A stretch of DNA of 64,000 bases, from NCBI GenBank assembly GCA_039621445.1, contig CP154954.1, positions 45,859,847 through 45,923,846 on the forward strand. Direction: 5' to 3'. Positions within the stretch are counted from its first letter, which is position 1. Each line of letters starts with the position of its first letter. The position numbers and the translations under genes were made by a program. The notes below the pieces were generated by a model. That model saw nothing but the letters and a program-made list of their open reading frames with translations. It was not told where the DNA came from and did no database searches. Positions 28,834-54,648 of this stretch are shown one piece after another. Source of the stretch: Euglena gracilis (taxonomy: Eukaryota).

Positions 28834-31800
28834 ATGCCCTACACTCCCCACCTTAGACCCCATGTGGGCCCGGCCCAGAGCCCCGCCTCCCTCGGGCCTG
28901 CCCTGACCCCGGCGGATGGCCTACCCCCCGGCTGGCCGGCTGAACGGGCCGCTGTTCAGTGACAGCCAGCCCTTGCCCTGGCGAGCCTCGGCACTGAGGT
29001 AAAGAATTTCAAGGTTGGACTATTTTGCTTCAGTGCTTCAGGCAACCACACAACCACAGGATTCCATTCTGTTGGCCACCTTTTGAGTGCAAACATTGAA
29101 TTGAGACTTCCTTTCCAGTGAGACAAGAATGTACAAACATCTGACCACGCTGCCACAAAACAACTCTTTCCCCAGGACCCGGAGGAGATTGGGGGCTCCG
29201 TCCCCACCCACGGGCCGGTGGATGGGAGGTCACCGAACTTCGCCAAGTATACCATGTTAAGGAAATTGCCAAAATTTTCTGGACGGTAAAATGAAATGGC
29301 ATTATTCATGAGGTGAAACGTTACTTTTGCTTTGTGGAGGTGCCCGAGGTTTTTCAACTGCAACAAAAATTTTAGCCATTTAGCCATCTTTGCCGTTAGT
29401 CAGACGTCAGCTTTTTTGTGTTCCTTTGCACAATTGTTCAAAGAACAAGCCAACTATGTGTTAAGTGCAAGCGGCTACCTAAGGTTTTGTCTCTGCCCAC
29501 TCCCCCCCCCAGCAGCATTTTTCCAGCTGTGTTCGGCCATGTGAAGTTGGCTTAGGGAGCCGGGCGGGCCAGGTGTCCACCGTCCGCAAGGAGGCCCCGG
29601 CCGTCCACCGGGGATGGGCCCCGGGGGCCAGTGGACTGCTGGCCGAGGGCTGCGGCAGACCAGGACACCTCCCATCGCCGGCCCTCCAGCGCGGACTCCG
29701 TCGGTCTGTCCCCGGCCTGAGTGGCGGCAGCGGCAGACCCAGCTGGACTGCCGAACCATTTAGACTATTTGGAGGCTGGATCGACGCCCCAATCGACTAA
29801 TTTCATTCTTGTCCGATGCTGCAGTCGAGCCATGCCAACTTTGTGCAATCATGTCTGTGTCTCTTGTCTGACGATGAAAGGGACCATATGTAGCTAGGAA
29901 GTTACACAGGATGGTGGCCCTTGCGAACAGGATGGGCTCGTGAGCCCGTTTCCGGTGAATACCCATTCATAATACAACACAATTTCCAGTATTTTTTGAT
30001 ACTTTTGAGGACTTTGTGAAAATTTAGCTAAGAAAATCATTTTCTGAAGAATGATGTAGGTGCCTGGGTCAAGCTCAAGGAGGACACAAAATAACTGTAA
30101 TAGCCCGGAATGGCCAAATAATGCCGGTGCTTGGAGGAGAGTAATTATTACCTCTTGTCCATGTTTGTGACACGGGTGTTTTTCAGGTGTGCCAGCGACA
30201 CCTTTAAGCAGCGCCTGTCCCACTGGTCCGGGCCGGTTTGTTTCCACCCCCTTCCCTTCTGGCTTGCTGCCCGGAGGGCCTTCTGGAAGCGGCCTCCCCC
30301 AGCCCGGGATCGAGAAGCGGCTGGAGCAGGCGCGGGCCACGGTGGAGCGGGCGGAGCAGCGGGCGCTGGAGGCGATGATCGACCGGGATGCTGCCCTGAC
30401 GTCCCTCAAGGCCGGCCGCGCCAGCCGGTCCTTCTTCCAGGGCGAGGAGGTGTGTGCCTGGCAGTGCCAGGCCAGGCCGGAGGGGTGTTCGGGGTGCCAG
30501 CGCACGGTGTTTGGCACATCATCGACATTGTACAGAGTGTGCGTCTTTTATTTCCTGAATGCCTTCAGAAAATTCTTTTTTTTTCAAGCCCAAGACTTCC
30601 AAACCAGGCATTTTTAAGGAAAAACATTTTAAAGCATGTTATGGCGTTTTTTTCAAGGCTTTTTAAGGCATTTTTAGAGCTTTTTAAGGTGCCGTGGTTT
30701 AAGGGCTGTCCAGGCATCGAACCGATGTTTTTGATTTTGCACACGGTCCAAAATCAAAAAGTCAACAATAAACCTTCTTTTGTTTTGGATGGATAGACAA
30801 TGTTCCAGCGATGACAAAAATAAATTTTTACCCCCCCCCCGAGTTGGGCTGATTTTGCCGAGATTTTGTGGTTTCACTTTTGTTCAATGAGAGAAAATTT
30901 TGCTGGTCCATTTTTTTTGGCATTTTCAGGCATTTAAGGCATTTTGGCCCCAAATTTTGAGCATTTTAAGTTTAAAAAAATTTTTTTAGAACAGACACCA
31001 TAAAAATTGTATTGCCTGTTCCAAACCTGTATAGATGGCCCTCAAATGTTCATCTCATTGAAGTTGCGGGAGATGAGAAAACCAAGGTTGTCAACAGAGG
31101 GGATGCAATTTGCATAATTTATATTTTGTTCGGTATCCAGAATCTTCAAAGGTCGCGTTTTTTTGCATAATTTTGAAAGAATATGAGAAATTATTGTTTT
31201 GTGTTCGACCAGAATACCCAGACATCCTGAAGCTGCACATTCCACTTTTTGCACCTTCGTTTGTTGCATTTTTGCATCGCATATTTTGAGCAGGGGATAT
31301 GCACATTTTTTTGCGTTTTCGCACATAAATTTCAGTACACTTTTTTGTTTTTCTCATTGTTTGGGAACTTTTTTTTGTGATTTCCTCAGTTTTTGTGTTT
31401 TTTTGCCCATTTTTTTTGTGATTTCTTGCACTTTCTGAATTTTCCGAATTTTTGAAAATGACATTGTTCTGTGATTTATTTCGATGTTTCAGGGGTTTGC
31501 AGGTTGGTGGTGATGCAACTGTGGACATGAATGGGTTTGCACCTCGCAGCTTTCCCCGGAGTCGGAGCTGGAACGGCTCCGCACGGCGCTGCAACAAAAG
31601 ACCAGCCGCCTCGCTGAGGTCGAGGCCGCTCTGCGCCAGCTGGAAACGGAGCGCCGGGGTTGGCTGCAGAAGCGGGTGTGTCACCCCCCCCCCCCAAGTT
31701 GCTTGCTGGGCTCATCCTACGAACAAATGCAGGCATCCATCCCTTCATAAGCACATATACGGGCTCATACGCACATATGACGCACATATGCAGTGTGTAA

Positions 31801-34800
31801 AGAAATACAATATTTTTATACCAAAATTTCGAGATTCCGAAATAATTGGGAAGTATTATGAAAGTAATTTTGTTGGAATGATTTTTATGGATTTTGGTTG
31901 TTTGGGATGATTCGGCTGACGAAAGACGACTTTTAGCTTTTTTTTTATAACGTTTTCCCCAAAGGGATTTGTTTTTTGACAGACGATTAGACACAGAAAC
32001 ATATTGGCACATCATCACATATATTGCAAGGATTCCCACAAGTTCGTGCCACGAATAATCATGAATAATCACAAACCGGCACAAATTTGGTGATTTTCCA
32101 AAATCACGAATTTGCACGAATGACCACAAACAACCCTGAATAATGAGCGAGCTTTTCTCTCTTTTATAAATCTGTTCCTCTGAATGTCCATCCATTTGAT
32201 CGTCTGTCCCGGATCAATTTCCCTTAAAGGAAAACAAACATGGACAAGAGGTGATAATTACTCTCCTCCAAGCACCGGCATTATTGGCCATTCCGGGCTA
32301 TTTTTGTATCAGCTTTGAATTACAGTTATCTTGTGTCCTCCTTGAGCTTGACCGAGGCACCTACATCATCCTTCAGAAAATGATTTTCTTAGCTAAATTT
32401 TCACAAAGTCCTCAAAAATATCAAAAAATACTGGAAAATTGTGTTGTATTGCGAATGGGTATTGTTGTTTTGTGCAGGAAATAGGAAAACCCAGGCGCTT
32501 TTTAGGTAGCGCAAATAATCACAAATCAGAATTAAGGGCCGCCAGCACGAATTTGTGGGAATCCCTGTACATTGTTCTTTTCCAATACCAGGGCAGTTTT
32601 GGCTCGAATTGCAAAGCCGGAAGCCCCCCCCCCCCCGGGCCGGCAGGACCAGTTGGAGAAGGCCCTGGAGGAGCACCGCCAGGCCCAGCAGGGGACCGTC
32701 TCCGTGGCGGAGTTCCAGGCGATGCAGCCCGGGCCGCCCCCTCCCACCTCCCCCCCCCCCCCGGGTGGGTCCCGCTGGCGACGCAGGGGGGGGGGAGGCC
32801 CGTTGCCGGCTCAGCTGTCACAGGCCTGGGGCGAGAGGGACCTGGCCCGGGCCGGGTCCCCATCGGCCCTTTGGCGAGAGTTACACTCTTTCAAGGACGG
32901 ATCTTGCCCTTTTTTTGCGTCCCTGGAGTTTCAATCCGTTTCTTTCAGTCAGTCTACAGGAGATATTTGAGAAGAAAGGGGTTGGTGACCTCAACAAAGA
33001 AGAACAAGAACTGAACTGAAGAAAGAGCCGTGAGAGTGTTTCTCTTTCTTGCCCATGGGTGGCCCAGCGTTAGCTGCCTTGGAAACGGAGACAGCAGCCC
33101 GCCATACTCTTCAGGCAGAATACGTGTGTCCTCTCAATCTGTGTCTCTGTGTGCTTTGACAATCCCACACATTACAGCAAGACGTGAAAGAAAATGTATA
33201 GAAACAGCACCAAAGGGTGTTTGTCGGTGGAGGTAGTGTGATGTCTTAAAAATATCAGTGCATATGTTTCGGTTTCTGTGCAACAGCACCTCTCGCGGGA
33301 ATGATTCCAGTGATTTCAGGGCACCGCATCATTTCATTGTCGCCATCGTCATCGCCGTTGGCATTTTGCACAATGTTTCCCATGTTTTGTTCACTCACGG
33401 AGCGTTGATGCACTCCTCCTCCCAGGACTTGTCGCATGGGAGGGTGTGGGGCTTCAACGGGTGCAGTTTGCTTGGCCTCCCAATGCCGGCCGTCCCAGGC
33501 GGCCCTGCAGCACGCTTTGGAGGAGCTGCAGCGAGGGGCTCAGCGGCCGGGGCAGTCGGTGGAGACGGCGGAGATTAAAGTGATCCCTCCCCCGGAGCAG
33601 GTGCTTTAACCCCCCCCCAATATTGTGCACCATGATAATTGCGAAAACCAGTACGTGTGCACCTGGAGGGCCTGGAACATCCTCCCTGGAAAGTTTTACA
33701 CCCAAAAAATTATAGCCATGAACACAATCCATCTTTTTTTTGGCGGCCAAGTTCAACAGTACCTCCCCTTCCCTTTGTCCAAGACACACCGTGTCGTTGA
33801 CACCCCCCCCCATGTCAACGGCACTTTTCCAGAACACTAACTGACGTCATTCAATTGCAACCAAAAATTGCATGATAATTGTGGTTTCTCCAATTTCAAT
33901 TTTTTCAAAGAAAAGTGACACCAATTTGAAACAGTCTTTGATGATCAAATGAACTGCAGGCCACCTATGCCAGATGTGTTTGTCAAAAGTTTCGCCACTG
34001 GTGGCGTGTTTTTTTGCCAAATTGTTTTATTTGGCCACCGTAAGTTCATGATATAAATTGCTATGTTTTCGTCAATTTTTTGGTCCTGCAATGTATTAGT
34101 CAACTGAAATGGTATCTGAATCTGAAAAATTGTGAACCTTTTCACCCATCTTCATTATTCCCAATCCTCTTTAATTGTGATTTCAAGCAAACACATGAAG
34201 TTTTCTTGATCCGTTTGCTTGAAATCACAATTAAAGAGGATTGGGAATAGTGAAGAGTAGGTGAAAGGGATGTGGTTCGCAATTTTGTGTTGCTGTCCTG
34301 ATAATTGCACACACCTGTCCCCGTTTTGATGTGTCGTTTAACCCCCGGGGGAAGGTATGCTGACAAAGGGGCCTGAAATTTTGTTTCTAGAAAGTGCAGA
34401 CCTCTCTGTATGGAACACGTGTGTGTTTTCTTTTATGTGCAAAGTACATAAATTTGTACTTTGGTAAATAAATAAATAATAATAATAATAATATATAAAT
34501 TTGTATTTAAAGTACATATATATGTGTGTGTGTGTGGCGAGTGTTAAGGTTAGTACCCCCGGGGGGGTTCTAAACTTGACATCAGGTTGGGCAGGGGTTA
34601 GGGTTGAGGATAGGGTTAGGGTTAGGGTTAGGGTTAGGGTTAGGGTTAGGGTTAGGGTTAGGGTAACCCTTGCCCAACCTGGTGTCAAGTTTAGTACCCC
34701 CCCGGGGGTACTAAATTTAACACTTGCCATATATAAAAATGTGTGTATACATACACGTTTTTATGGAAATGTGTATGCATGTATGGATGTGGATATGTAT

Positions 34801-37800
34801 GTCATGTATGTATGTATGTATGTATGTGTGTATGCATGTATGTATGCATGTATGTATGCAGGCATATATGTATGTATGTATACATGTATGCATGTATGTA
34901 TGTATGCATGCATGTATGTATGCATGTATGTATGTGTGTATATGTATGTATGTATGTATGCATGCATGGATGTATGTATGTATGTATGTATGTATGTATG
35001 TATGTATGTATGTATGTATGTATGTATGTATGTATGTATGTATGTATGTATGTATGTATGTATGTATGTATGTATGTACGTCTGTATAGATCAATACACC
35101 CATCTTCCCTGCCCTCCCCTCCCGGGCAGGCTGGTGGGCTGCAGCAGCTGCAGGAGGCGCTGCAGCGCGAGGCGGCTCGCTGTGCGGAGCTGCGGGAGCG
35201 GCTGGCGGCCGCGCAGGCATCGAGCACACTGGCCGAGGAGAGCCTCGCCAAGGAGCGTGAGGCCTGGAAGCGCAGTCAGGTTGAGAAGTGTAAAAATATT
35301 TCCTTTCTCAACAATCCCTGGCCTCGTGTTGCCCAAAATTATGAAACACACAAAAAACAGGGTTGATACAAGATTTTTTAAAGCATTTCTAGTTCGTCTT
35401 TATCAATTTCCGCGCACCTACGTGTTTTTAAAGGGTAATAATTTTTATTGCACCTTCGCTTTGCATCATACAGCCCCCCCCCCCCATTCAGTTATGTTTA
35501 CAAAACCCCAAGACCCATTATACTCCCCCTCATTTCTAGCCCGCTTCCCCCAAATTTCCAGCGCTCTGCCCCGCGAATTTTCGAGGTGGGCTACACCTGA
35601 TGCAGCATTCGGCCCCCTCCAGTTGGTCCCGCCGCTGGTCTTTTCTGTTCCGGGCCACGCTCTGCCTCTTCCGCCGAACTGTGTTCTCCCCCGCCCCCCT
35701 GCGCCACAGGAGGCGATGCAGCAGCAGCTGCAACAGGCGCTGCGGCAGGGCGGGCAGTGGGCCGGGGCGGACGAGCAGCTGCGGGCGATGAAGGCGGAGC
35801 TGGCGCTGCGGGAGGAGGAGTTCGAGAAGAAGCGGGACGCCTGGCTGTGGGCCAAGGTGTGGGGCGGCCGGGCGCCAGGCCGCCTGTCCCACTGGAGGGC
35901 TCCTTTCGCCCGTCCGACGGAGCTGCTCTTGCCCAGGCTTCCCGCTTGCTCACACCTGGAGTGGTGGAGTAAGTCGACAGGAGTTCGAGTGCTCAAATTG
36001 ATGCATAGGAATATTCGGCAGACCCACACCATAGGGCCCCGGGCCCACCAGTGTGGGGAGAAGTATACTTATGGTGTAGGGTTGGGGTGTCAAAATTTGA
36101 TCAATTTTATTTATGTCAAATTCAGGCCTAAATTGAGGCCTAAATTTTGTCAATGTCGTCCTAAAAATATTACCTAAGTTTTGGCTTGACCCGAAAATCG
36201 TTACCCTAACCCTACACCATAAATACTCTCCTCCCATGCCACTGTGCCCAGTGCCCTACGGTATGGGGCTGCCAAATATTCATCCATTTTCACCGTGCAT
36301 GTATCTGGCCCTTTTTGATCCCTGTTTTTGAAAACTTTCTGACGGAAGTTTTTCGGTCCACCCCAGCTTCGCCGGGCTGCAAAATTTCATTGCCACTCGA
36401 CCCTGCCAGGGGGGGGGGTCTTCTGGCAGCCTGGCAGCCTGGCTGGGAGCTGCTGGCTGGCTGGCTGGAGAAAGGTGTTGGCTGGCTGGACCCAGGGTGC
36501 GATATAACGCAATGTCCAAATATCAGTGGGCATAGACGCTTTTGCCAGCCCTGGATTGGAGAGGATCCCAAAATGCCGGAGGGTTTGCGGGGTTTAGGTG
36601 GGGGGGGCCCCCCCCCCCCCCCCGGACCGGAGGGGAGTCCAGACCCCCCCCCCTGCCAAGGGGGTCCGGACCGACCCCGGGGGGTACCCGGGACCCCCCA
36701 AAAAGGTGATTTTTTTCCTTCTGGCGCTATCCACCGAATTTTTTTCCGTTTCTGACAATTTTTTACCCAAAAGGCCCGAAATGGTACTTTTGGTCCTTCT
36801 TGGGAGGCCGAAAATCTGTGATCCCCAGTGGCCACTCCAATGCAACATAACAAAGCGCGACATAGTTATGTTTACACATATGTAACAAAACAACATATGC
36901 AGCACAAGGGATTCTTTTAAACCCCCCCCCCAAATAACACCCCCCCCCCCGGTGTGTTATTTGGGCACCCGAACTGGGGCCCCAGGGGGGGGGTGTTATT
37001 TGGGGGGGGTGTTATTTTTACATGGAAAACCAAAGGAAAACAGGGGGGATGTGTTATTTGGGCGCTCGAAATCGGCCCCCGAGGGGGGGTGTGTTATTGG
37101 GGGGGGGTGTTATTTGGGGGGGGGGTGTTATTTGGGGGGGGTTTACCCCCCCCTATGTCCAACGACCCCCCTATGTCCAATGACCGCCCCCCCCGGTCAG
37201 AGGACACCTTTTCGGAGGTTTGACCAAATTTTTGGTCCCGGCGCGAAGCGCCGGGACGAAAAATTTTGCCCAAAAATTGCCCAAAAATTTGGCCAAAATG
37301 CCATTCTTGACACTTTTTGGACAAAAATTTGTCAAAATTGCCCAAAATTTTCGGCGCAAAGCGCCGGAAGGGAAAATTTGGGCATTTTTGGGTGGGTAGG
37401 GACCTGGGCACCCACCAACTTTCTTTTGACCCCATGTCCAACGACCACCCCCCCGGTCAGAGGACACCTTTTTGGTCATTACCCTATGTCCAACGACCAC
37501 CCCCCCCGGTCAGAGGACAGAGGTTACCGGTCATTGGGCATAGGGGGGGGGGGGGTATTTTGGGGCCCTCCGAACAGTTGCACACAAAAGGAATTGAAAA
37601 TCGGTCGACGAACCACCGACTAGTCGATAGGGTAACTGGCTATGCGATCAACTAGTGGATCGACTAGCCATACCCCCCTCCCCCATTGTAAGCCATTGAG
37701 CGGGGGGGGGGGGGGGCTGGAAAAAGGCTGCTGGCTGACTGGATTCAGGCATTATTTTTAAGGCAATTTTTTAAAAAAAAAATGTTTTTAAAGTCATTTT

Positions 37801-40800
37801 GAGAATTTTTAAGGCGTCTTCCAAGGGCAGTCAAAGAGCCATCCAGGCATCGAACCAACCAGGTTGAAAATCAAAAAGTTCAAAAACCAATTTTTTTTGA
37901 GTTCTGGTTGGATTGACAATGTTCCAGCAATACCAGAAATTATTATTTTACCCGGAGTTGACTTTTTTTATGAGGGTTTTCAAATTGTTTTTTGCTCGAA
38001 ATTCGAAAAAAAATTCCGGACAAATTTTAAGTTTTTTTTGAGGTTTTCAAAGGCGTTGTGGAAATTTTTTTTCAATTTTTTCAAAATTTTTTACGGTTTT
38101 TAAAGTGCCTTAAAAAATATTGCCTGGCTGGACCCCCTGGGGGAATTTTTTCCCGAAGCAACCCCCTGATGACGAGTATGAACTCGCAGGCACACAGATA
38201 TAGGGGTGTCCAACTGCGGCCCCAGGCTGATTCTCTGCGTGGATCACAGGCACATCCCCAGAGGGGCAGCAGTACAATACATACAACCCAACCCAACCCA
38301 ACCCAACACAACACAACACAACACAACACAACACAACACAACACAATATCCATCCACCTGTGCATCCACCCCTTTGTTTTGTGAGGTTCATCGTCGGTTC
38401 CGTCCCCAATTAAACTCCCAAACAAAAACCCCGAATCAAATAGAATTGGGATAAAATTATGGCAAGGCTAATTTACTGGGCCCCCCCCCGGGGGGGGTCC
38501 CAGTAGTTTAACCTGGGGGCGGGGGTCCCGCTTCTTTCACCAACTCCAAATTTGGGTTTTCGCGCCCCGGCGCGCCGCATTTCCGTCCATTGAGGGGGTA
38601 GGGCTGGGGTTAGGGTTTGGATTGGGGTTAGGGTAACGATTTTAGGAAAAAAGTTAGGCCGAAATCGGGTCGAAATTCATCATTAAAAGTGTCTCGGAAA
38701 TTCGGCCGAAATCCGGCCGAAATCCGGCCCCACTGCCTGATTTCCCCTCACCCTCACCCTAACCCGAATCCTAACCCTAACCCCTGACCCTAACCCGAAC
38801 CTTCACCCTAACCCTAATCCGGAAAATAACCCCGAACCCACTCCGTCTTCAAAAAAAATTTTCGCCGGGGCCCCGATTTCCCTGGGAAAAGATGGGGGGG
38901 TCCAAGTAGTTTCACCTGGGCGGCCGAAGTCCCCGGTAGGTACAACTACTGGGACCCCCCCCGGGGGGGGGGCCCAGTAAATTAGCCTTGCCAAAATTAT
39001 TTCCCATCTTGCCAACAGAATTGGTTGCAGCGATATTTGAACAGAGCAGACAATTTCTGGCAATCAAACAGTTTTGATGACATAAAACCTGAGCCTCTGA
39101 GCTGCCCCCCCAGGGGGGGTTGGTATGTGATGCCCTCTGACACATTGCTTTGGCCAGCAAGGCCGTCCTTGCTGCCGCCCACCACCACGTTTCGCCGCGG
39201 AGCCCCCCCCCCCCCCCAATCCGCAGGCCAACTCCCAGGCCACGCTGGCCGCGGACCGGCAGACGCTGACGACGGAGCAGGAGGCGCTGGGGCAGGAGGT
39301 GGCGATGCTGACGGTGGCCCTGACGGAGCTGCAGCGGGAGCGGGAGACGCTGCAGGAGCACTACGTCCAGCTGCAGGGGGAGAAGGTGGGTGGGCGTGGT
39401 CCGGCTCCGAGCCCGGTCCGATCAGTGGCTGCGCCGAGACGTCCGGCGGCTTGCCCCGGTGGAAAGGCCGTGTGATGCAAATGTTGGATTTGGGTTATGG
39501 CGCTTGTGTGGTTGGCGCTTGGTGAGGACAGTACCCCCGCCATTTCTTTCTGTTTCCATCTCCCCCCATTTATTTCTCCCAACCATTTACCAAGCATTGT
39601 GTTGCAGGGGAGGGCCACGCAGAAGTCACAGCCTGGCAGTACGAGTGCGTCTCATTCATTGATTGCGTGGCTCGAGGCAGATGCCCGGGCCATCCCGGCT
39701 CTGTCCTCCCTGGCTGCTGTCCCGCTCGCAGGCGGTGATGCAGCAACAGCTGCAGCAGGCGTTGCTGCAGGGGGCCGGGCAGTGGGCCAACGCGGACGAG
39801 CAGCTGAAGGCGCTGAAGGCGGAGCTGGAGCTGCGGCTGGAGGAGTTCGAGAAGAGGCGGGACACGTGGCTATGGGCCAAGGTTTGGGATTGTGGCTTCT
39901 GTTGCCAAAGAGAAACCACACCTCGAAGCAGGCTTTTGCTTCAGGACACCAGGGGTCCAATAGCTGTCCACTTTTACTGGCCACAGGAGAAGAGCCACTA
40001 GCTGGACCCCCTCTCCCTGGCAGCAAAACTGGCTGATGGATTTCATGTCCCCAGTGACCGGCGCAAAGCGCGATTCTGTTGACCCTGAAAACATGTCGAA
40101 ATGTTTTTGTCTGTTACCAAAAGAGTTTTCCAGTTTTGCACCTCAACAAAGAACAGCCTGAAACTACCAAGGAATGACTCTATGGTCCGCGGCACACTGA
40201 CACGCATTGTTTTCCGATCAGGCCGACTCCGAAGCCACACTGGCTGCAGACCGACAGACGCTGATGACCGGGGGTTTTCTTCAGCGGAGGGAACCCTGAC
40301 CCCCCAAAGTGCACAATGATCTAATTATGCAGTGCCCTAATGAGTGCGCACCCCCCCCCAAGGGTCCGAATTACCTCCCCAAAAAGTGCGCACCCTCCAA
40401 AGGAGAAATCGCTGTCACACAATTCTCAGAATTGTCCTTCTCAAACCAAATAGTCCAAGCCCAAATTTGACACATGATCATTTGACTCACTGCTTGGCAT
40501 CACAAGAAGGGGAAAAACTGAAACAGAGTGGTGGAATATCACTTATTTTGTGCTTTGCTCTAATAAGTGCGCGGTGCCCCAATGGGTGGCCCAATAAGTG
40601 GGATCCGAAACTATGTCCTTAAAACGGGGGGTTACCCAGGGGGGGGGGGTTCAGCCAGCACCTTTTTTCCAGCCAGCACCTCCCAGCTGGGCTGCAGACC
40701 CCTGAGTCCGCTGAAATAAAGTTGGGGATGGACCGAAAATTTTTTTGGTGCTCTGCACCGAAAATTTTAGGAAAGGGGGTCAAAAGTGGCCAAAAAATGG

Positions 40801-43800
40801 CATTTTGGGTGGTCTTCACCACCTATTTTTGCCAATTTCAGCTGGATGCTTTTTGGGGCATTTTTTGGGTACCTGTTGGGTCCAGCTCCCAGCTCCAGCC
40901 AGCACCTTTTTTCTGGCCGGCACCTTTTTCGGCCCACAGGACCCCTCCGGGGGTCCTCAAAAAAACCCCTGCTCAGGGCCTTTTTTTTTCCAGCCAGCAG
41001 CTGCCAGCCAGCTGCAGACCCTCCCCAAGGGCCTGGTGAAATAAAGTTGGGCGAAGATATTTCCGATGCAAACACCAGTCAAGAAAAGCATTTCGATGTG
41101 AATTTTTGGGGTTTTGGTCTCAAATTTCTTGGTTGAAAAATCCCAACCCTGCCGGATTTGGGCTTGTTTGCCCCTTTTTTTTTACACCATGCTTAAGGTG
41201 CGTCCAACCCCACCCCTGGGGGGCGGGATGACTGGCTGGTTTTGGCTCCAGCAGGCACCCTGAGGGGCGGTCACCAGGAATGGTCGAAAGTTCCCACCCG
41301 GCGGAATTTTTTCAGGGGGTTGGCCAATGTCCATTGATTTTGAGCCATTTTGGCCCGAGTGGTCAAAGTGACTGACCCCCAGCGCGGGGAGGGGGGGGAG
41401 TGGATGACTAGATTTTGAACATGGAAGGTGACTCCCCGTGGACCAGAAATCGTCCAGCTGCCAGCTGGCTGGACCCCCCTCCCCAGGGAGTCATGCCAAC
41501 TCCTTTTTTCCAGCCGGGGGGCTGCTGGACCCCTCCCCCCCCCCCCCGGGTCGTTGATAAAACTCCTGATGATGACAGAGCAGGAGGCGCTGGCAAAGGA
41601 GGTGGAGGTGTTAGCCCAGGCCCTGGAGGAGTATGAGAACGAGAAGGACATGCTGAGGGAACAGAAGATGAAGCTGAACCACGAGAAGGTGTGTGAATTT
41701 TTTGCTTCCTTTTTTTTCGTGGGTTACAAATTTACACCAAGAGGTGTAATTTGTAACCCCCCAATTAAAAAATTATTGATTGGGCACCCGACGCCGAAAG
41801 CTGGGGAGTTATTTGGTTGGGGGGTTTCAAATTCCGAAATTTGAGGACTTTGAAAATAACCATGATTGCCAGTTCCTCCAAGCTTTTTTATGGTTCATTT
41901 TCATATTTCATGCCTTTCTGTATATCTTCATTTTTTTGATGCAGAGTGTCACCATCCCCTCTCGCAGCCCCCACACCCCCCACATTTTTCCAATGCAATA
42001 CCCAATGAATGCATTTTTCAATGCAAGGCAATTTGAGGTTTGAGATCGTTCCATTCAGAAAAGCATCGTTGAGGTTTTGCATGATAAACTCAACTTTTGC
42101 AGACGGCATTCCTGATGAAGTTTGTGACACACCTTCCTGGTCATTGCGGTGATTAACAATTTTTGGTTTGCTTCCCCACCTCCGGTCCAGGCTTTTTTTT
42201 GAAGAAAATTGCACTCCCAGGGGGGGGGGGTGCTATGGGAAGGTCGGGGAGCAGACATTCATTTAGTGTGGTACACCAAGGTTGTCACTTTGTGGTTCAT
42301 TGTGGACACCAAATTTTTTTTTGTGGTTCACGCATGGACACCAAAAAAATTTTGTGGTTCACCTGTGGACACCAAGGATTTTTTTGTGGTTCACCTTTGC
42401 ACACCAAAAAAATGTTTTTGGTTCATATGTGGACACCAAACATTTGGGTCAAAAAATCAAAAAAATCGATTTTCTAAATTTCTTGAAAATGGTGGGGAGT
42501 CAAAGGAAATGTCCAGAGACCTGAATTGAAGCCCTTTGATGCCCTATCTAAGGGTATTTTGATTTCCCCGCAACTCCCCGCCCAGCCCGAGTTACGGCCA
42601 TTTTTCGGCCAATTTGGGCCATTTTGAACAGTTTTGGCTTGTTTTGACTTGGCCGTTTTCGGCCATGTTTCGGTTGAAAAGGTCGAAAAATTTCGAAGAA
42701 AATCGAAAAAAAAAATTGCCCAGAACAATGTTTCTCGGACCTGGAAGAACTGTTTTGAGCCGAGAATGGGCGTTTTTCGCCCCCCGCCCCCCCCCCCCTG
42801 TTTTTGGCTCGGAACCCATGCATTTGGGTGCAAATTTTTATATTGAGCCTCAAGGGGTTCCTAAAATACACACCCGGCGCAGAGCGGGGGGGGGTGGGAG
42901 GACCCCCCCTTCCGAAACTTGGGGGTGAGGGACCAGGTTTGAATAGTGTTGAGACCTTAATGGGACTTGCACGTCATGGACGGCCGAAAAGACCAGCATT
43001 GCAAATTTCGCATAAATTATGGTTTACAAATTACACACCTGCAATTTACGGTTATTTACAGTAATTTTTGAAAGGTTAAGGCGTCAGCGACCCCCTCCCA
43101 TACCCCCTACACCCCTTTGCTTCGCTTTTTTCGACTTTTTTTGACCCAGAAACTGAGAAGATTCAACCACCGAAAACTGGAGGTTGGAGGGGGGTCCCCC
43201 CCAAGATTCCCATACAAGCCTGGGGGTGTGATTCGCTGCTACGGATTGAGCCGGAGCCAAGGTCCACAATTTGGCTAAGGTGTCTCAAGATCAATCTGCT
43301 TTCAGTTGTAAAACTTGGTTTTTTTCAATCCTCAATCAAGTTTTGTGGGCAACAAATTTTTTTGTGGACACCAAATTTTTTTGTGGTTCACATGTGGACA
43401 CCAAAATTTTTTTGTGGTTCATACGTCTTTTGTGAACCACATTAAATGACTAGGGAAGCAGGGGAGTAGGGGAGCAGGGCATTTTCGATCCCTGCAGGGG
43501 GGGGGGTCGGGTTTTGGAGTGGGCAGTGCTGGCACACCCCCGGACCGAAGGCGCCAGGTCGCGAAAAAGGCCATTTTCAAACGAAGTTTGGCTGGGTCGC
43601 AGGCACCGGGGTTCAGAACCCCCCCCCACCCAGGGTGCCTGCTCTGGGCACCCCATAGCACATGGCACACCCCAGGGTTCATTACCAGAGGCCTGCTATG
43701 GCCGTTGGGGGGATTCCCCATCTGCAGGTGTTTCGGCTGCCAAATACTCCTGTGTCCACTCCTAACAAAGGCCACACCTCCCTATGGAGGGCCGCAGTTC

Positions 43801-46800
43801 TCAGTGGCGCACCTGGCGGGTGGAAAGGGGGGGGTCAGTATGGACCCTGGTCAGCCCAGCACCCCCCCCCCGCAGTGCCCCCTCCCCCCAGGCCCGGCTG
43901 CGGCAGCTGGAGGTGGCGATGACGGCGGAGCGGGAGCGGTATAAGGCGTGGGACGCGAAGCTGGTGGCCCGGCAGGCGGCCCTGGAGGAGGCCCGGGCCA
44001 AGCACCGGCGGCTGCGGGAGGAGCTGGACCGGCAGATCGAGGAGTGGAAGAAGGCGAAGGTCCTTTCTGGACGGTTGGCATTTCTGGGCATCGGGGAACC
44101 CCAGGGTTTGATATCAGGAGGGTGTATGGGTTAGTGGAGGGGGTGTGTCCCCCTCCCAGGGATGGATGGGAAGCCCTTCGAGTTAATTGAAGGTAAGGGT
44201 GTTAGGGGGGGGTCCGCTGAGCTCTGTCCCTTTATGGGGTAAGATGCGAAGCTTACCACCGGCGAAACCCCCCCCCTCGCCCCCCCCCCCCCCCCCCCCC
44301 CCGGGTCGGGGCCACCTCGGGAACCGACGGATTATCACCATGATCCCGGCCCGGTTCCCGGATTATTTTTTTTCAGTCGCAAGCGACTGGATTCCTAGTT
44401 TCCGAATCACCCGGAGTTGACCCCCAACTCCCCGCCAGGCCGAGTTATTCACGCGTGAAGGGGTCCAAACTGGGTAGGATTTACCCGCCCCCCCCCTGGA
44501 TAAGCCCCCCCCCCCCTTTGGACTCTGCCATTTCGGCCAAAAAATATCAATTTTCAAAATATCTCCAAAATGAAGCAAAATCAAAGGAAATGTCCCGAGA
44601 CCTAATTTGAAGCCCTTGGAATGCCCCATCTACTGGTATTTTGATTTCCCCGCAACTCCCCGCCTAGCCCGAGATACGGCCGTTTTTGGCCCAGATGGCC
44701 GTTTTGTACACTTTTCCCACTGTTCGACTTAGCCATTTTCAGCCAAAATTCGGCCAAAAATCAATAGTTTCAAAATTTTTCCAAAATGAAGCAAAATCAA
44801 AGGAAATGTCCGGAGACCTAATTTCAAGCCCTTGGAACACTCCATCTACCGGTATTTTGATTTCCCCACAACTGTTCGTGTAGCCCGAGATACGGCTGTT
44901 TTTCAGCCGATTCTGGCCATTTTGTACACTTTTTCCACTGGTGGATTTAGCCGTTTTCGGCCAAAAAAGGCGAAAAAATATCGAAAAATTTTTTTTTACC
45001 CAAAACCATGCTTCTTGGCCTCCCGGACCCGCAAAAAGGGTTTTCGAGCCGAAAAAGGGCGTTTTTCGACCATCATGGCCATCATGACCATCATGACCCG
45101 TGATGGCCATCATGACCCATGATGGCCATCATGACCCATGATGCCAATCATGGGTCATGATGCCCATCATGACCCATGATGCCCATCATGACCCATGATG
45201 GCCATCATGACCCATGATGGCCATCATGACCCATGATGGCCATCATGACCCATGATGGCCATCTTGACCCATGATGCCAATCATGGGTCATGATGCCCAT
45301 CATAACCCATGATGCCCATCATCACCCATGATGCCCATCATGACCGAGGATGGCCATCATGGGTCAAAAACGTCGAAAAAAAATCGAAATATTTTTTTTG
45401 CCCGAAACGATGTTTTTTGGCCTCCCGGACCTAGAAAAACTGTTTTTGAGCCGAAAACGAGAGTTTTTCGACATGCCAGTGCCCCGTTTTGGGCCGCCAA
45501 CCCATTTACTTCGGGCCAAAACCGGATCAAAAAAGTCGAAAAAAATCGAAAAAAAATTTTCGCCCAAAACGATGTTTTTTGGCCTCCCGGACCCAGAAAA
45601 ACCGTTTTTGAGCCGAAAATGAGCGTTTTTCGACCCGCCGGCGCCCCGTTTTGGGCCGCCAACCCATTGACTTTGGGTCAAAGCAAGGTCAAAAAAGTCG
45701 AAAAAATCGAAAAAAAATTTTGCCCAAAACGATGTTTTTTGGCCTCCCGGACCCAGAAAAACTGTTTTTGCGCCGAAAATGAGCGTTTTTCGACCCGCCA
45801 GCGCCCCGTTTTGGGCCGCCAACCCTAACCCTAACCCTAACCCTAACCCAAACCCTAACCCTGACTTCGGGCCAAAACCGGGTCAAAAAAGTCGAGAAAA
45901 ATCGAAAAAAAATTTTTGCCCAAAACGATGTTTTTTGGCCTCCCGGACCCAGAAAAACCGTTTTTGAGCCGAAAATGAGCGTTTTTCGACCCGCCGGCGC
46001 CTCGTTTTGGGCCGCCAACCCATTGACTTTGGGTCAAAACAAGCAAGGTCAAAAAAGTCGAAAAAAATCGGAAATTTTTTTTTGCCCAAAACGATGTTTT
46101 TTGACCTCCCGGACCTAGAAAAACTGTTTTTGAGCCGAAAACGAGAGTTTTTCGACATGCCAGTGCCCCGTTTTGGGCCGCCAACCCATTGACTTTGGGT
46201 CAAAACAAGGTCAAAAAAGTCGAAAAAATCGAAAAAAAATTTTTGCCCAAAACGATGTTTTTTGGCCTCCCGGACCCAGAAAAACTGTTTTTGCGCCGAA
46301 AATGGGCGTTTTTCGACCCGCCAGCGCCCCGTTTTGGGCCGCCAACCCTAACCCCAACCCAAACCCTAACCCCTGACTTCGGGCCAAAACCGGGTCAAAA
46401 AAGTCGAGAAAAATCGAAAAAAAAAATTTTGCCCAAAACGATGTTTTTTGGCCTCCCGGACCCAGAAAAACCGTTTTTGAGCCGAAAATGAGCGTTTTTC
46501 GACCCGCCGGCGCCTCGTTTTGGGCCGCCAACCCATTGACTTTGGGTCAAAACAAGGTCAAAAAAGTCGAAAAAAATCGAAAAAATTTTTTTTGCCCAAA
46601 ACGATGTTTTTTGGCCTCCCGGACTCAGAAAAACCGTTTTTGAGCCGAAAATGAGCGTTTTTCGACCCGCCAGCGCCCCGTTTTGGGCCGCCGACCCAGT
46701 GACTTTGGGTCAAACCCGGGTCAAAACAGTCGAAAAAAGTCGAAAATTTTTTTTTGCCCAAAACGATGTTTTTGGGCCTCCCGGACCCAGAAAAACTGTT

Positions 46801-49800
46801 TTGAGCCGAGAACGAGCGTTTTTCGACCCGCCAGCGCCCCGTTTTGGCCCGCCGACCCCGTTTCAAAAAAATCGAAAAAAATCCAAAAAAAATTTTGCCC
46901 AAAACGATGTTTTTTGGCCTCCCGGACCCAGAAAAACTGCTTTGATCCGAAAACGAGCGTTTTTCGGGCCGCCGGGCCGCCGGCCGGGACGCCGGCCGGA
47001 CCGCCGGGCCGCTGGGCCACCGGGCCGCCGGCCGGACCGCCGGGCTGCCGGGCCGCCGGGCCGCCGGGCCGCCGGGCCGTCGGGCCGCCGCGCCGGGGGT
47101 CAATGAAGGGGTGGGGGCGCGCTTATAAAGAGCTCAGCACTATTCAAAACCTGGTCCCGAACACCCCCCCCCCCCCTAGGGGGGTAAGGGGTGGGGGGGG
47201 TCCGGACCCCCCCCGGGATGGCGGGAGGGGGGTCCGGACACCCCGCCCCCCCCCCCTTGACAGGTGCCAAAAATAGCAGAAAATTTTCTTCCGGCGCTGC
47301 GCGCCGGAAAATGAGCAAAAACACCCCTTTTTTGTTGACTTTTGGACATGTTGCCCTTTTTTTGATGTGTTGGTGTTTTCCCCCAAAAAATTGTTCAAAA
47401 AAATTCAAAAAACGAGCATTTTTGGATCGACTATCAAAGAAAAATCAGGGGTTTTTGACCGATTTTGACCCGATTTCCGGCCCTTTGCCCGTCCATGAAA
47501 TCGAAAATTTTTCGGCCCCCCCTCAGTTTCGAGGTAGGAGGGGGGGGTCGCTGAGCTCTTATCCCTTTATGGGTAAGAGCGAAGCTTACCACCGTCGAAA
47601 TCCCCCCCCTCGGCCCCCCCCCCCCCCCCCCCCCCCCCCCCGGGTCGGGGCCACCTGGAGAACCGACGGATTATCACCATGATCCCGGCCCGGTTCCCGA
47701 AATTTTTTTTTTCAGTCACGAGCGACTGGATTCCTAGTTTCCGAATCACCTGGGTTTGACCCCCAACTCCCCGCCAGGCCCGAGTTATTCACGCGCGAAG
47801 GGGTCCAAACTCGGTAGGATTTACCCGCCCCCCCTGGATGAGCCCCCCCCCCCTCAAAATGTCAATTTTCAAAATATCTCCAAAATGAAGCCAAACCAAA
47901 GGAAATGTCCGGAGACCTAATTTGAAGCCCTTGGAACGCCCCATCTACCGGTATTTTGATTTCCCCGCAACTCCCCGCCTAGCCCGAGATACGGCCGTTT
48001 TCGGCGCAGACGGCCGTTTTGTACACTTTTCCCTCTGTTCGACTTAGCCGTTTTCGGGGGGTGGGGGGTCAAAAAATCGATGTTTTCAAAATTTCTCCAA
48101 AATGATGCAAAATCAAAGGAAATGTCCGGAGACCTGAATTGAAGCCCTTGGAACGCTCTATCTACCGGTATTTTGATTTCCCCGCAACTCCCCGCCCAGC
48201 CCGAGATACGGGCGTTTTTTGGCCAATTTGGGCCATTTCTGGCCATTCTCATACAGAAAAACGATCAGTGCGGGTTCGAACCCACGCCCCCGTAGAGGAC
48301 CAGCATTTGCAGCTGGTGTCTTTAGCCACTTGACCAACTGACCGATGACTAATGTACTCATTGCAAGCGTTTTTCGACCCGCCGCGCCCCGTTTTGGGAA
48401 CGATGTTTTTTGGCCTCCCGGACCCGGAAAAACTGTTTTCGAGCCGAAAACGAGCGTTTTTCGACCCGCCGGCGCCCCGTTTTGGGCCGCCGACCCATTG
48501 ACTTTGGGTCAAAACCGGGTCAAAAAAGTCGAAAAAAATCGAAAAAATTTTTTTCGCCCAAAACGATGCTTTTTGGCCTCCCGGACCTGGAAAAACTGTT
48601 TTCGAGCCGAAAACGAGCGTTTTTCGACCCGCCGGTGCCCCGTTTTGGGCCGCCGACCCATTGACTTTGGCTCAAAACCGGGTCAAAAAAGTCGAAAAAA
48701 ATCGAAAAAATTTTTTTTGCCCGAAACGATGTTTTTTGGCCTCCTGGACCCAGAAAAACTGCTTTTGAGCCGAAGACGAGCGTTTTTCGCCCCACCGGTG
48801 CCCCGTTTTGGGCCGCTGACCCATTGACTTTGGGTCAAAACCGGGTCAAAAAAGTCGAAAAAAATCGAAAAAATTTTTTTTTGCCCGAAACGATGTTTTT
48901 TGGCCTCCCGGACCCGGAAAAACTGTTTTTGAGCCGAAAACGAGCGTTTTTCGACCCGCCGGCGCCCCGTTCTGGGCCGCCGACCCATTGACTTTGGGTC
49001 AAAACCGGGTCAAAAAAGTTGAAAAAAATCGAAAAAATTTTTTTTGCCCGAAACGATGTTTTTTGGCCTCCCGGAACCGGAAAAACTGTTTTTGAGCCGA
49101 AAACGAGCGTTTTTCGACCCGCCGGCGCCCCGTTCTGGGCCGCCGACCCATTGACTATGGGTCAAAACCGGGTCAAAAAAGTCGAAAAAAAATCAAAAAA
49201 TTTTTTTTGCCCGAAACGATGTTTTTTGGCCTCCCGGCCCCGGAAAAACTGTTTTTGAGCCGGAAACGAGCGTTTTTCGACCCGCCGGGGCCCCGCTTTG
49301 GGCCGCTGACCCATTGACTTTGGGTCAAAACCGGGTCCAAAAAGTCGAAAAAAATCGAAAAAAATTTTTTTGCCCGAAACGATGTTTTTTGGCCTCCCGG
49401 CCCCAGAAAAACTGTTTTTGAGCCGAAAACGAGCGTTTTTCGACCCGCCGGCGCCCCGTTTTGGGCCGCCGACCCATTGACTTTGGGTCAAAACCGGGTC
49501 CAAAAAGTCGAAAAAAATCGAAAAAAATTTTTTGCCCGAAACGATGTTTTTTTGCCTCCCGGACCCAAAAAAACTGTTTCTAAGCCGAAAACGAGCGTTT
49601 TTCGACCCGCCGGCGCCCCGTTTTGCGCCGCCGACCCATTGACTTTGGTTCAAAACCGGGTCAAAAAAGTAGGAAAAAAATCGGAAAAAACCCCCCACAC
49701 CCCCCCACACCCCCCCACACCCCCCCCCCCCACCCCCCCACCACCCCCCCACCCCCCCCCCCCCCCCCACACCCCCACACACCCCCCCACTCCCCCCACC

Positions 49801-52800
49801 CCCCCCACACCCCCCACATGTCACGTGACCTTTTTTTATTTTTATTTTTGTTCTTATGTTTATTTTTTTATTTTTTTCATTTCTCTTTTCATTCTTTTAT
49901 TTTTGGCATTTCTGCAAAAGAACCCGATGGTATTTCATTGTGGCCAAAAAGATTTTGTGAGGTTATTTGACGGAGTAGGGTCAGGGTTACGATTCTTGTC
50001 CAAACAGCAGAATATTTCCCGCTCAACGTTGTTAGATTGGTCTCAACAAGGTACACCCCCACACCCCCCCCCACTCCCCCACACCCCCCCCACACCCCCC
50101 ACACCCCCCCACCCCCCCCACACACCCCCCCCCACACCCCCCCCACACCCCCCCACACCCCCCCCCACACCCACGTGACCTTTTTTATTTTTTTTTTTTT
50201 TTTATGTTTATTTTTTATTTTTTTTTCATTTCTCTTTTCATTCTTTTATTTTTGGCATTTCTGCAAAAGAACCCGATGGTGTTTCATTGTGGCCAAAAAG
50301 ATTTTGTGATGTTATTTGAAGGAGTAGGGTTAGGGTTACAATCCTTGTCCAAACAGCAGAATATTTCCCGCTCAACGTTGTTAGATTGGTCTCTACAAGG
50401 TACCACCCCCCACACCCCCCCACACCCCCCACACCCCCCCCACACACCCCCCACACCCCCCCACACCCCCCACACCCCCACACCCCCCCACACCCCCCAC
50501 CCCCCCACACCCCCCCACCCCCCCACTCCCACACCCCCACTCCCCCCCACCCCCCCACCCCCACCCCCCCACACCCCCCCACCCCCACCCCCCCACACCC
50601 CCACCCCCCCACACACACCCACACCCCCACACACACCCACACCCCCACACACACCCACACCCCCACACACCCCCCACACCCCCCCCCTGTCACATCATTT
50701 CACGTGACCCTTTTCATTTTTATTTTTCTTTTTATGTTTATTTTTTTTTTTTTTTATTTCTCTTTTCATTCTTTTATTTTTGGGATTTCTGCAAAAGAAC
50801 CCGATGGTGTTTCATTGTGGCCAAAAAGATTTTGTGAGGTTATTTGAAGGAGTAGGGTCAGGGTTACGATTCTTGTCCAAACAGCAGAATATTTCCCGCT
50901 CAACGTTGTTAGATTGGTCTCTACAAGGTACACCACACACACACACACCCACACCCCCCCACCCACCCCCACCCCCCCACACCCCCACACCCCCACCCAC
51001 ACACCCCCCCACACCCCCCACACACCCCCTCACACCCCCCACACCCCCCACATGTCATATCATTTCACGTGACGTTTTTTTAATTTTATTTCTTTTTTGT
51101 TTATTTTTTATTTTTTTCATTTCTCTTTTCATTGTTTTATTTTTGGCATTTCTGCTAAGGCTGCTTCGAACATTCGAATATTCGACGAATATTCGAATGT
51201 TTCAAAATAATCGAACGTTCGAATGTTGTGAAATATATTGTCGAATATTCGTGCAATATTCGACCGGAAAATTTTTTGTTTCCATTGGTGTGATTTCCTT
51301 CATTGCATATTAGTAATGCAAAAAGATTCTCCCTGTATGCATTAGTATTTTTCCCTTCAGACGACATGTGTCAGAGAGGCGCATAGCTCAGTGGTAGAGC
51401 ACTCGCCTTACAATCTATTGGTCGTGGGTTCGATTCCCTCAAAAATGAATTTTTGGTTTGAAATGACATATGCTTCTATGTATGTTTTAATTCAGCAAAA
51501 ATATACACAGTGGGGATCGAACCCACAACCGCTACCTTGTGAACCGAGTGCTCTACCACTGAGCTACGTGTATACTGACTGCACAATTCGCTTAGAGAGC
51601 ATTTAGGGCTCAGGAGGCAAGTTAAAAAAAAACGAAAACCCTGAATTAATGTGAAATGTTTCCACCAAAATGTTTTATATTCGTCTCTGCCGAAGTGATA
51701 TCTGATTTCAACAGCATAGTCTTTGACCACTCAGGCAATTGGTCCATGGTAGCTAATGGTTGGAAATGGCTAAAAGCCGTCGTTGACCAACCCGCCAGAG
51801 CCCCGTTTTGAGCCGCCAACCCATTGACTTTGGGTCAAACCCGGGTCAAAAAAGTCGAAAAAAATTGAAAAAAATTTTGGGGCCCGAAACGATTCGCTGG
51901 GACGCCGGGCCGCTGGCCGGCCCGCCGGGCCGCCGGCCCGCCGCTGGCCGGGCCGGGCCGGGCCGGGCCGGGCCGCCGCCGGCCGGGCCGGGCCGGGCCG
52001 GACCGTCGGTGGTGGGGGTGCGCTTATCAAGAGCTCAGCACTATTCAACACCTGGTCTGACCCACCCCCCCCCCCCCATGTCGGGAGGGGGGTCCGACCC
52101 CCCCCCTCAAGGCTTCCCATCCATCCCTGCCCCCTCCTGGACCGGAGGGGGTCCAACCCCTCCACCTGCCATTATATCGAACCGTGGGTCACCTCGCTCG
52201 TTATATACCCCTCCTCCACCTGGAGCCATTCAGGACATGCAAAGGAAAGCAATAGATGCCGGTGACGAATTTTTTTTGCTTTAAACCCCCCTGAAACTAT
52301 TGTCGTTAATATTTATGTGACTAACCGTCGTCAAAACATCATTTTTGACATTTATTTTTCGAGAATTGGGCTTTTGGTGGTTTTGGGGGAATTTTCAGGG
52401 ATAGGATATTCACCAACTTTTCTTCATCTTATACCCCCCCCCCCTGCAAAACCCACCAAATCTGATCTTATAAGCTGGGAGGGAGTTATGATGGGGTTAT
52501 CCAGGCCTGCAGAAGTGTTGAAAGAAAAGTGGGTGTGGTTAGGTAGATTATTTGCCACAATCGCTAGGCTTTATCTGGCAGCTTTCCTGCAGCTTCCCCA
52601 CATTTCACTTTTTCTTTTCACTCTCTCGGCATCGCACTCCCCCACATTTCTGCTTTTCATTGTTGTATTCCTGCACGCACATCAGTGGTGTTTTTTTTTA
52701 TTGACTGGTGTTTGGGAAACCCCCGAAGTGTTTCCCCCCCACCCAGCACAGCATCCAATGAGAAGGCATTGCCTTTTCAAAAATTGCGAACTCCCTCCGT

Positions 52801-53979: not shown

Positions 53980-54648
53980 TTTGCATTCTGATGCAGGAAC
54001 CAGATAGTTGTTGGGAGGTGGTACCTGTTTCGGGTCGCCAGCATATTCTTTCATGAGGTCTTCTGTTGTGCATTGTTTTGAGGACTCACCGAGGGTGTTT
54101 AATTCAGGGGATTCCCCCCCCCCTTGGTTGTCCGATAATAAATCACTGCCAGAAAGTTTTGGTGCTTTTCTGGCACAACAAATCGTGCCGGCCGCAACAT
54201 TTTGTTTTTTTGCCAATTTCCGCCTAAATTTGTGGAGTGTCAGTGCCTGTTCAGATCAGTCCCAGAGATGCGTGCTGGACTCTGAATGCATCTCATGGGT
54301 TGCGTTTTTGGGAGTTTGACAACCTCAAAATCATGTCTTGCAGTCCAGTCCTGTCAACTTGCTGGGTGACCCCATTCAAAAGACGTGGTTCATTCAAAGA
54401 AGCACCCACAGTTTTAATGGTAATTCCCAAAACAATTCAAGTAAAATTTAATTCATCCAGAAAAAAAAATCAAAAGGTTTAGAATTCAAAATCAAATTCC
54501 AAAAAAAGCACCACCACCACCACCAAAAGTCAGTCAAGGCAAGGCCCCAGCCCAAGGCCCCGGTGCTGGAGCTGACGGTCTGCAATCACCGGCGGTCATA
54601 CAAATGTGCGGCCAAGTGGGGGTCGTCCTGGCCCCTCCAAGGAGGGTC

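Follow-up and report, generated by a model that had tools for sequence, protein, structure and literature searches.

We analysed a 64,000-nucleotide (nt) stretch of the Euglena gracilis genome (GenBank assembly GCA_039621445.1, contig CP154954.1, positions 45,859,847 to 45,923,846, forward strand; hereafter the window, with positions counted from its first letter), in which a gene for a coiled-coil protein contains two paralogous 159-nt exons, exon A being uninterrupted and exon B being split by a 1308-nt insert. This insert is a genuine euglenid nonconventional intron (intron 13 of the gene). We consider that it originated through insertion of a non-autonomous transposon with terminal inverted repeats (TIRs) into exon B, with an 8-base-pair (bp) target-site duplication and exact removal by nonconventional splicing, a reading to which we assign a probability of roughly 0.7. 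Judged by its sequence, intron 13 very probably belongs, in decayed form, to a TIR family with 8-bp duplications; compared with elements nearby, its ends and flanking repeat lend concrete support to a transposon origin of nonconventional introns.

Results

Intron 13 interrupts one of two paralogous exons

The features of the gene that bear on the split exon are as follows.

28916 to 58493, plus strand: gene for the coiled-coil protein, divided by 22 introns into 23 coding exons, delimited by tblastn and a junction solver with protein P0001
35710 to 35856, plus strand: exon 9, paralogous to exon 11 and forming the first half of a duplicated two-exon unit, 127 of 147 nt being identical to 39732-39881
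39227 to 39385, plus strand: exon A, the uninterrupted 159-nt paralogue, bounded by AG upstream and GT downstream
39266 to 39273, plus strand: single-copy ("empty") site CTGACGAC in exon A, from the sequence and the alignment of exons A and B
39732 to 39881, plus strand: exon 11, between exons A and B
40222 to 40265, plus strand: 5' part of exon B, 44 nt in the register defined by the helix described below
40266 to 41573, plus strand: nonconventional intron 13, 1308 nt, missing from P0001 and from RNA contigs, with no GT/GC-AG in any register
41574 to 41688, plus strand: 3' part of exon B, 115 nt

The gene spans 30 kb, and its spliced product P0001 (source name EG_transcript_3498), a coiled-coil protein of 805 amino acids, matches the window exon by exon at 92-100% identity, in keeping with nuclear DNA of E. 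gracilis or of a very close strain or relative. A two-exon unit has been duplicated within it, exon 9 plus exon A corresponding to exon 11 plus exon B, and once the two parts of exon B are joined (44 + 115 = 159 nt), exons A and B agree at 112/159 nt and 30/53 amino acids. At the DNA level, homology covers 35679-35863 against 39699-39888 (82%), 39224-39273 against 40219-40268 (84%) and 39267-39392 against 41570-41695 (67%); no alignment was found between the two copies for the intron interiors of the duplicated units. A first-pass annotation made from the letters of the window had described this pair of 159-nt exons, one of them split, together with the empty site in the intact copy, and both descriptions hold. 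The available empty site is thus paralogous, lying in exon A, and not orthologous or allelic.

The same annotation had described the insert as lacking GT-AG borders, and GT/GC-AG ends are absent from all 10 registers compatible with the protein (starts 40262 to 40271). The borders carry an exact 7-nt repeat, TGATGAC, which renders eight cut registers equivalent (starts 40262 to 40269), such that the exact cut site is not placeable. Across the site P0001 reads ...ADRQTLMTEQEAL..., and the predicted junction ...RQTLMTEQEAL... is present. Support at the RNA level comes from two contig runs presumed to be RNA (X15 and X16) and one run of raw RNA reads (X21). Record 9 of X15 consists of blocks 39225-39383, 39730-39879, a piece of 42 letters, 41570-41686 and 43890-44060, which leaves 42 + 117 nt for exon B; the 42 letters can be placed in the bin 40152-40337, because 7.82 x 42/186 gives the depth of 1.77 seen in that bin. 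In X16, record 13 has exactly 159 letters between 39730-39879 and 43890-44044. The exon pieces in these contigs are offset by -2 because exons and introns both end in AG. In X21, depth is 0.09-0.84 within the intron (40710-41453) versus 0.6-13 in bins that hold exons. The junction of intron 13 therefore rests on contig pieces, depth arithmetic and P0001 rather than on a direct joint row, and these sources agree with the expectation, raised in the first-pass annotation, that removal of the insert restores the 159-nt exon in RNA. Nonconventional introns are released as circular RNA, later than the conventional ones; no circular-RNA joint was among the 15 of 288 joints listed.

The intron ends pair in the nonconventional register and abut an 8-mer repeat

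Four features define the termini of intron 13.

40261 to 40268, plus strand: left 8-mer copy CTGATGAC, made of 5 exon nt and intron positions +1 to +3
40269 to 40286, plus strand: left terminal inverted repeat CGGGGGTTTTCTTCAGCG, with a helix arm at 40269-40278
41527 to 41568, plus strand: right terminal region, with a helix arm at 41559-41568 and the terminus CGTTGATAAAACTCCTG at 41552-41568
41569 to 41576, plus strand: right 8-mer copy ATGATGAC, made of intron positions -5 to -1 and 3 exon nt

Compared as DNA, the termini match at 8/10 of their first bases and at 13 of about 18 positions when extended; as RNA, they form 10 contiguous pairs, including 2 G-U pairs, between positions +4 to +13 and -15 to -6. 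Among 200,000 random placements, a helix of 10 or more pairs in precisely the +4/-6 register arose at a frequency of 2.6e-4. The helix register, 40266/41574, is one of the protein-compatible registers and leaves spacers of 3 and 5 nt. On the DNA side, the flanking 8-mers CTGATGAC and ATGATGAC are identical at 7/8 positions, the left copy lying flush with the helix and the sole mismatch being the base that adjoins the helix on the right. At a fixed register, chance identity of this degree is 3.8e-4 under uniform composition and 2.9e-3 with the match rate of unrelated intron ends in the window. Imperfect TIRs, a helix from +4 to -6 and 8-mer flanks adjoining the paired ends had all been claimed beforehand, and all three are borne out; the helix follows the published rule (PMC11282704, Fig. 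3D legend; PMC12501133; papers are cited here by accession and for the parts of their text that were available).

Elements in the window share terminal sequence with intron 13

The whole window was scanned for inverted ends with flush direct repeats, and the elements considered here, with the PCNA gene that hosts one of them, are listed below.

868 to 1091: 224-nt element, inverted ends 9/10, perfect 8-bp duplication ACCTATTG
12960 to 13258, unstranded: 299-nt element of the same terminal family as intron 13, flanks 6/8 alike
17735 to 25303: PCNA gene (P0003 = EG_transcript_22509), 10 introns, 8 of them without GT/GC-AG
18083 to 18368, unstranded: 286-nt element resembling a MITE (miniature inverted-repeat transposable element), same terminal family, ends CAGGG.TTTTTTT
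20520 to 20693, plus strand: PCNA nonconventional intron 3, 174 nt, placed with protein P0003, interior AT-rich
38461 to 38992: 532-nt long-arm inverted repeat starting GG, perfect 8-bp duplication AAAATTAT, within intron 10 of the coiled-coil gene
40942 to 40990, plus strand: tail-to-head junction internal to intron 13, where a right end of the family stops at 40971 and, after an intervening CT, a left end of the family starts at 40974
56203 to 57046: 844-nt element, 21/21 inverted repeat starting CAGAC, perfect 8-bp duplication AGCAGCAC

A stringent form of the scan, from which palindromic or low-complexity flanks, tandem arrays and the inner pairs of long inverted repeats were dropped, gave 2 exact 8-bp cases, whereas 4 shifted controls and 5 Markov shuffles gave none, and yielded no exact flanks of any other length above 6. 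A looser scan adds 38461-38992 and 868-1091, bringing the elements with perfect flush 8-bp duplications to four. Of these, 18083-18368 is bounded by ACCCAGAG at 18075-18082 and 18369-18376 and is hosted by intron 1 of PCNA, a GT-AG intron of 2263 nt. A search for a protein in the minus-strand open reading frame (ORF) that flanks 12960-13258, which would have placed that element in a coding exon, found none. The high-copy 844-nt element 56203-57046 has subterminal repeats of ~31 nt and a second copy at 42252-about 43449, in intron 14, of which the left end is exact and the right end damaged; summed depth over this repeat in the DNA run X1 is 0.6-2.2 million, versus roughly 55-215 for single-copy bins, and its 21-nt TIR had 0 matches in a metagenome scan.

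The terminal family has the consensus CAGGGGTTTTTTTnAGG, with elements running CAGGGGTTTTTTTnAGG...CCTnAAAAAAACCCCTG. Ten termini fit it: both ends of intron 13, its internal ends at 40971 (right) and 40974 (left), and the two ends each of 18083-18368, 12960-13258 and PCNA intron 3. Right ends share about 40 nt, with a mean column identity of 75% over 50 columns, and the right end of intron 13 is 82% identical to 18336-18368 over 34 nt. When an nhmmer profile was trained only on the 4 ends of 18083-18368 and 12960-13258, its best non-training hit in the window lay at 42188, and the second and third best were the internal end at 40971 (40971-40942, E 0.001) and the intron's own 3' end (41564-41535, E 0.0032). 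Further CAGGGG-family matches to the profile, at 42188-42230, 26163-26197, 28661-28691 and 19177-19213 (E 3.8e-5 to 0.008), are possible unpaired ends. Among 64 family-like pairs of left and right ends, a flank match of at least 6/8 was found in 4, versus an estimated chance expectation of about 0.3. At its right end intron 13 is homologous to 18083-18368 and 12960-13258, at unrelated sites; at its left end the match covers only 10-13 nt.

Within intron 13 the family ends are ordered left (40269), right (40971), CT, left (40974), right (41568), so that the intron is composite, and what first inserted may have been a shorter element or a dimer. Summed X1 depth over its first bin is 9,895, versus the single-copy range given above, and contigs from other genomic copies join 40301 to 40652; together these point to a repeated family and to a secondary piece of 350 nt in the copy that forms intron 13. 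The segment 40302-40651 itself appears to be a secondary piece derived from a different repeat of very high copy number.

PCNA intron 3 and the pooled flanks

PCNA intron 3 has termini of the same type as intron 13, reading CAGGGGGTT from +4 and ACACCCCCTG up to -6, and its 8-mers GCCGTGGG and GTGGTGGG are 6/8 identical in the predicted register. The first-pass annotation had proposed an excess of flank identity over 8 nt as a genome-wide test. For the 15 nonconventional introns of the window, in-register 8-mer identity amounts to 54/120 versus 40.7 on permutation (P 0.002), or 47/112 versus 37.2 (P 0.0135) when intron 13 is left out; register 0 is the best of shifts -6 to +6, with a qualification given below for two of those shifts. 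Family ends occur on 2/15 of these introns, the interiors of the two being unrelated, and these two have the highest and second-highest 8-mer identity among the 15 (P 0.0095).

These comparisons bear on whether a transposon was involved at all. The repeat could have come from staggered-break repair with filler DNA, or from chance, and the pairing of the ends from selection on splicing, with the likeness to elements due to low complexity of G/C and T runs or to later landings in an existing intron. Short direct repeats flank 84.4% of all E. agilis introns, conventional ones included (PMC12501133), the consensus 10-mer occurs at chance frequency, the interior of intron 13 is full of unrelated high-copy motifs, and its left end is only weakly family-like, all of which would suit such an origin. 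Against it, helix and repeat abut in intron 13 (no gap at the left border, a single mismatch at the right) just as in the four elements with perfect duplications; the 3' terminal 30-40 nt are recovered by a profile built from other elements; PCNA intron 3 combines the same ends with a 6/8 repeat in the same register; and the rank association holds across the 15 introns. We consider an origin without a transposon very improbable.

Several observations nonetheless weigh against the transposon insertion that we favour. (i) Intron 13 has CGG at +4 to +6 in place of the usual CAG, facing CTG at -8 to -6, with a G-U pair at +5, although the CAG/CTG motif is weakly conserved and does not strictly define these introns; and in the minimum-energy fold computed for the full intron, the 5' end pairs locally and not with the 3' end. 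(ii) Shifts -6 (50) and -3 (49) come close to the pooled 54, which tempers the flank-identity excess, and the other 13 nonconventional introns reach only 2-5/8. (iii) Before filtering, the element scan shows 8-bp flanks in no greater number than shifted controls do; the signal emerges only once filters are applied. (iv) The terminal profile missed the left end at 40269, where the family match is confined to the 10-13 nt already mentioned, and the window contains 16 occurrences of the 10-mer CAGGGGTTTT at no more than 1 mismatch versus 16.4 expected, so likeness over a short motif is by itself weak evidence. (v) The rest of the window contains no long copy of intron 13 (blastn matches are of at most 40 nt), and the 18-mer and 17-mer termini singled out in the first-pass annotation match only themselves in the window at up to 3 mismatches. 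(vi) At ~1300 nt the intron is large for a MITE, in addition to being composite.

Order of insertion and exon duplication

Synonymous divergence (dS) is 0.24 between exons 9 and 11 and 0.53 between exons A and B; along exons A and B it is uniform and hence gives no sign of a conversion tract. A further reservation is that these values and the 1/8 mismatch in the 8-mer are compatible with insertion before as well as after the duplication. The intron could accordingly be ancestral to the duplication and have been lost precisely from exon A, by recombination with complementary DNA (cDNA) or by deletion between the 8-mers, in which case a transposon origin may still hold. The divergence is large enough for a 7/8 repeat to be as old as the duplication, intron 13, whose termini differ from the consensus at about a quarter of positions, is thus not young, and the 7-nt direct repeat would be a good substrate for precise deletion. 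Conversely, exon A retains both of its flanking GT-AG introns, so the cDNA route must have removed one intron alone, and frequent new, species-specific nonconventional insertions have been published, conventional introns being conserved or lost (PMC3935182, PMC6221363). Both orders require one additional substitution, at the fifth position of the site, and this point is hence neutral. What tips the balance towards gain is the published pattern of frequent new insertions. We regard precise loss from exon A as unlikely and, provided that intron 13 was a transposon insertion, we infer that it probably entered after the exons had duplicated.

Other features of the host gene and window

Across the 22 introns of the coiled-coil gene, the junction solver finds a GT-AG option with P0001 in 15 and none in 7 (28964-29657, 29714-30307, 32727-32807, about 32852-33073, 40266-41573, 53949-54822 and 55960-58408). 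The intron at 32727-32807 is a nonconventional one of 81 nt, a multiple of 3, and keeps the reading frame open; 6+9 positions pair between its ends, and the 8-mers flanking it are 5/8 alike. Intron 15 (44060-52833; 8774 nt) is dense in tandem arrays, with units of 161-163 nt (45364-46973 and 48399-49690) and of 19 nt (45070-45361) and C-rich arrays (49691-51049). Telomere-like hexamer arrays lie in opposite orientations at 34595-34664 (intron 8) and 38745-38817 (intron 10). Outside the gene, a long inverted repeat at 1159-2185 carries mirrored ORFs on its arms (1235-1468 on the minus strand and 1866-2108 on the plus strand). No Rfam families were found in 38800-44400.

Discussion

A proposed transposon origin with removal at the RNA level

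In the mechanism that we propose, a non-autonomous DNA transposon, belonging to a family with TIRs of the consensus given above and 8-bp target-site duplications, would have entered exon B with CTGATGAC as its 8-bp target, which was duplicated in the process. In the pre-mRNA, the inverted ends would pair over 10 bp (+4 to +13 with -15 to -6), and this helix would serve as the cis-signal of euglenid nonconventional splicing, with the 3-nt spacer before it and the 5-nt spacer after it. As 3 + 5 = 8, the pathway would remove the element together with one duplication's worth of bases, thereby restoring the 159-nt exon. The composite state of the intron would reflect either insertion as a dimer or growth by later insertions. 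The insertion event itself and the RNA cut sites are what we infer from the present sequence and from the spliced products. The first-pass annotation had put forward both the 3 + 5 = 8 arithmetic and the transposon origin: the arithmetic fits the data for intron 13 (7/8) and PCNA intron 3 (6/8), and the origin is favoured by the flush 8-mers, the CAG...CTG elements in the window and the terminal sequence shared with elements there, most clearly at the right end of the intron, the match at the left end covering 10-13 nt.

Which superfamily supplied the element is a separate matter. The 8-bp duplications (seen in four perfect elements) and the CAG...CTG ends suggest hAT, as had been proposed, and it is by these two features that membership is suggested; no transposase was seen in the window. 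The only superfamily with 8-bp duplications that was found documented in E. gracilis is Merlin, whose TIRs have a terminal GG and whose duplications are of 8-9 bp (PMC8101967, in the part available). It shares the organism and the duplication length with the CAG...CTG family, and was set aside for that family on account of the ends, which are CAG and not GG. The long-armed repeat 38461-38992, which starts with GG, fits the description of Merlin better than the CAG...CTG family does (PMC8101967).

Relation to known nonconventional introns and introners

Intron 13 has the hallmarks of the euglenid nonconventional introns described by Tessier, Milanowski, Guminska and colleagues and in PMC12501133, i.e., no GT/GC-AG borders, a +4/-6 helix and spacers of 3 and 5 nt; it also shares with them a border made slidable by a direct repeat, CTG at -8 to -6, and GT-AG neighbours in the same gene. 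It differs in having CGG rather than CAG at +4 to +6, in its unusually long repeat (7 nt exact, 7/8), and in having termini that can be linked to named elements elsewhere in the window. In E. agilis, nonconventional introns make up 71.8% of all introns, and the 84.4% of introns flanked by direct repeats are slidable through them (PMC12501133). Knock-in experiments in that work show that the helix motif must be set off by spacers of 3 nt from the donor side and of 5 nt from the acceptor side.

A MITE origin of nonconventional introns was proposed in 2014 (PMC3935182) and appears in PMC11282704 and in the discussion of PMC12501133; inverted-repeat ends, junction repeats resembling target-site duplications and new insertion positions are what that hypothesis has in common with our locus. 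The pairing of TIRs between +4 to +6 and -8 to -6, and "TSD-like" (target-site-duplication-like) repeats, are likewise already in the 2024 review (PMC11282704), and the field regards the transposon origin as unsettled (PMC6221363, PMC12501133, in the parts available). The available text of PMC3935182, PMC11282704 and PMC12501133 gives no element family, no duplication length and no link from 3 + 5 to 8 bp; the review nowhere uses "8 bp", "hAT" or "Merlin", nor does the PNAS text use "hAT" or "duplication". A named family, the 8-bp arithmetic and a filled/empty pair were not found in the sections and passages of this literature that were covered; the slide-length distributions and intron-end tables supplementary to PMC12501133 and PMC3935182 may already bear on the 8-nt prediction. 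As the idea of a MITE origin is already published, intron 13 is best described as a well-documented variant of it with a testable mechanistic corollary.

Introners, known from Micromonas, dinoflagellates and others, offer the closest parallel outside the euglenids, in that a TIR transposon becomes an intron and the target-site duplication helps exact excision (PMC11282704). They are spliced by the spliceosome with GT/AG-type signals (PMC11282704, within the part available), whereas the signal in intron 13 would be the TIR helix, read by the nonconventional pathway; moreover, introners come in many near-identical copies, each making up a whole intron in a different gene, whereas the copies of the family in the window are diverged.

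Implications

The locus yields specific predictions, namely a terminal consensus, a duplication length of 8 and a register of -5 to +3, and it offers a reason why the spacers required experimentally are of 3 and 5 nt. The element 18083-18368 and PCNA intron 3 lend themselves as natural substrates to the knock-in assay already published. Extended to the genome, the idea would be that the 3/5-nt splicing geometry is matched to 8-bp duplications and that most Euglena nonconventional introns are decayed insertions with CAG...CTG ends; we advance this tentatively, at somewhat less than even odds. If it were true, insertion of any TIR element with CAG...CTG ends into an exon would be followed by its exact removal from the RNA, and the pyrimidine|purine preference common to both junctions would have been inherited from the duplicated target.

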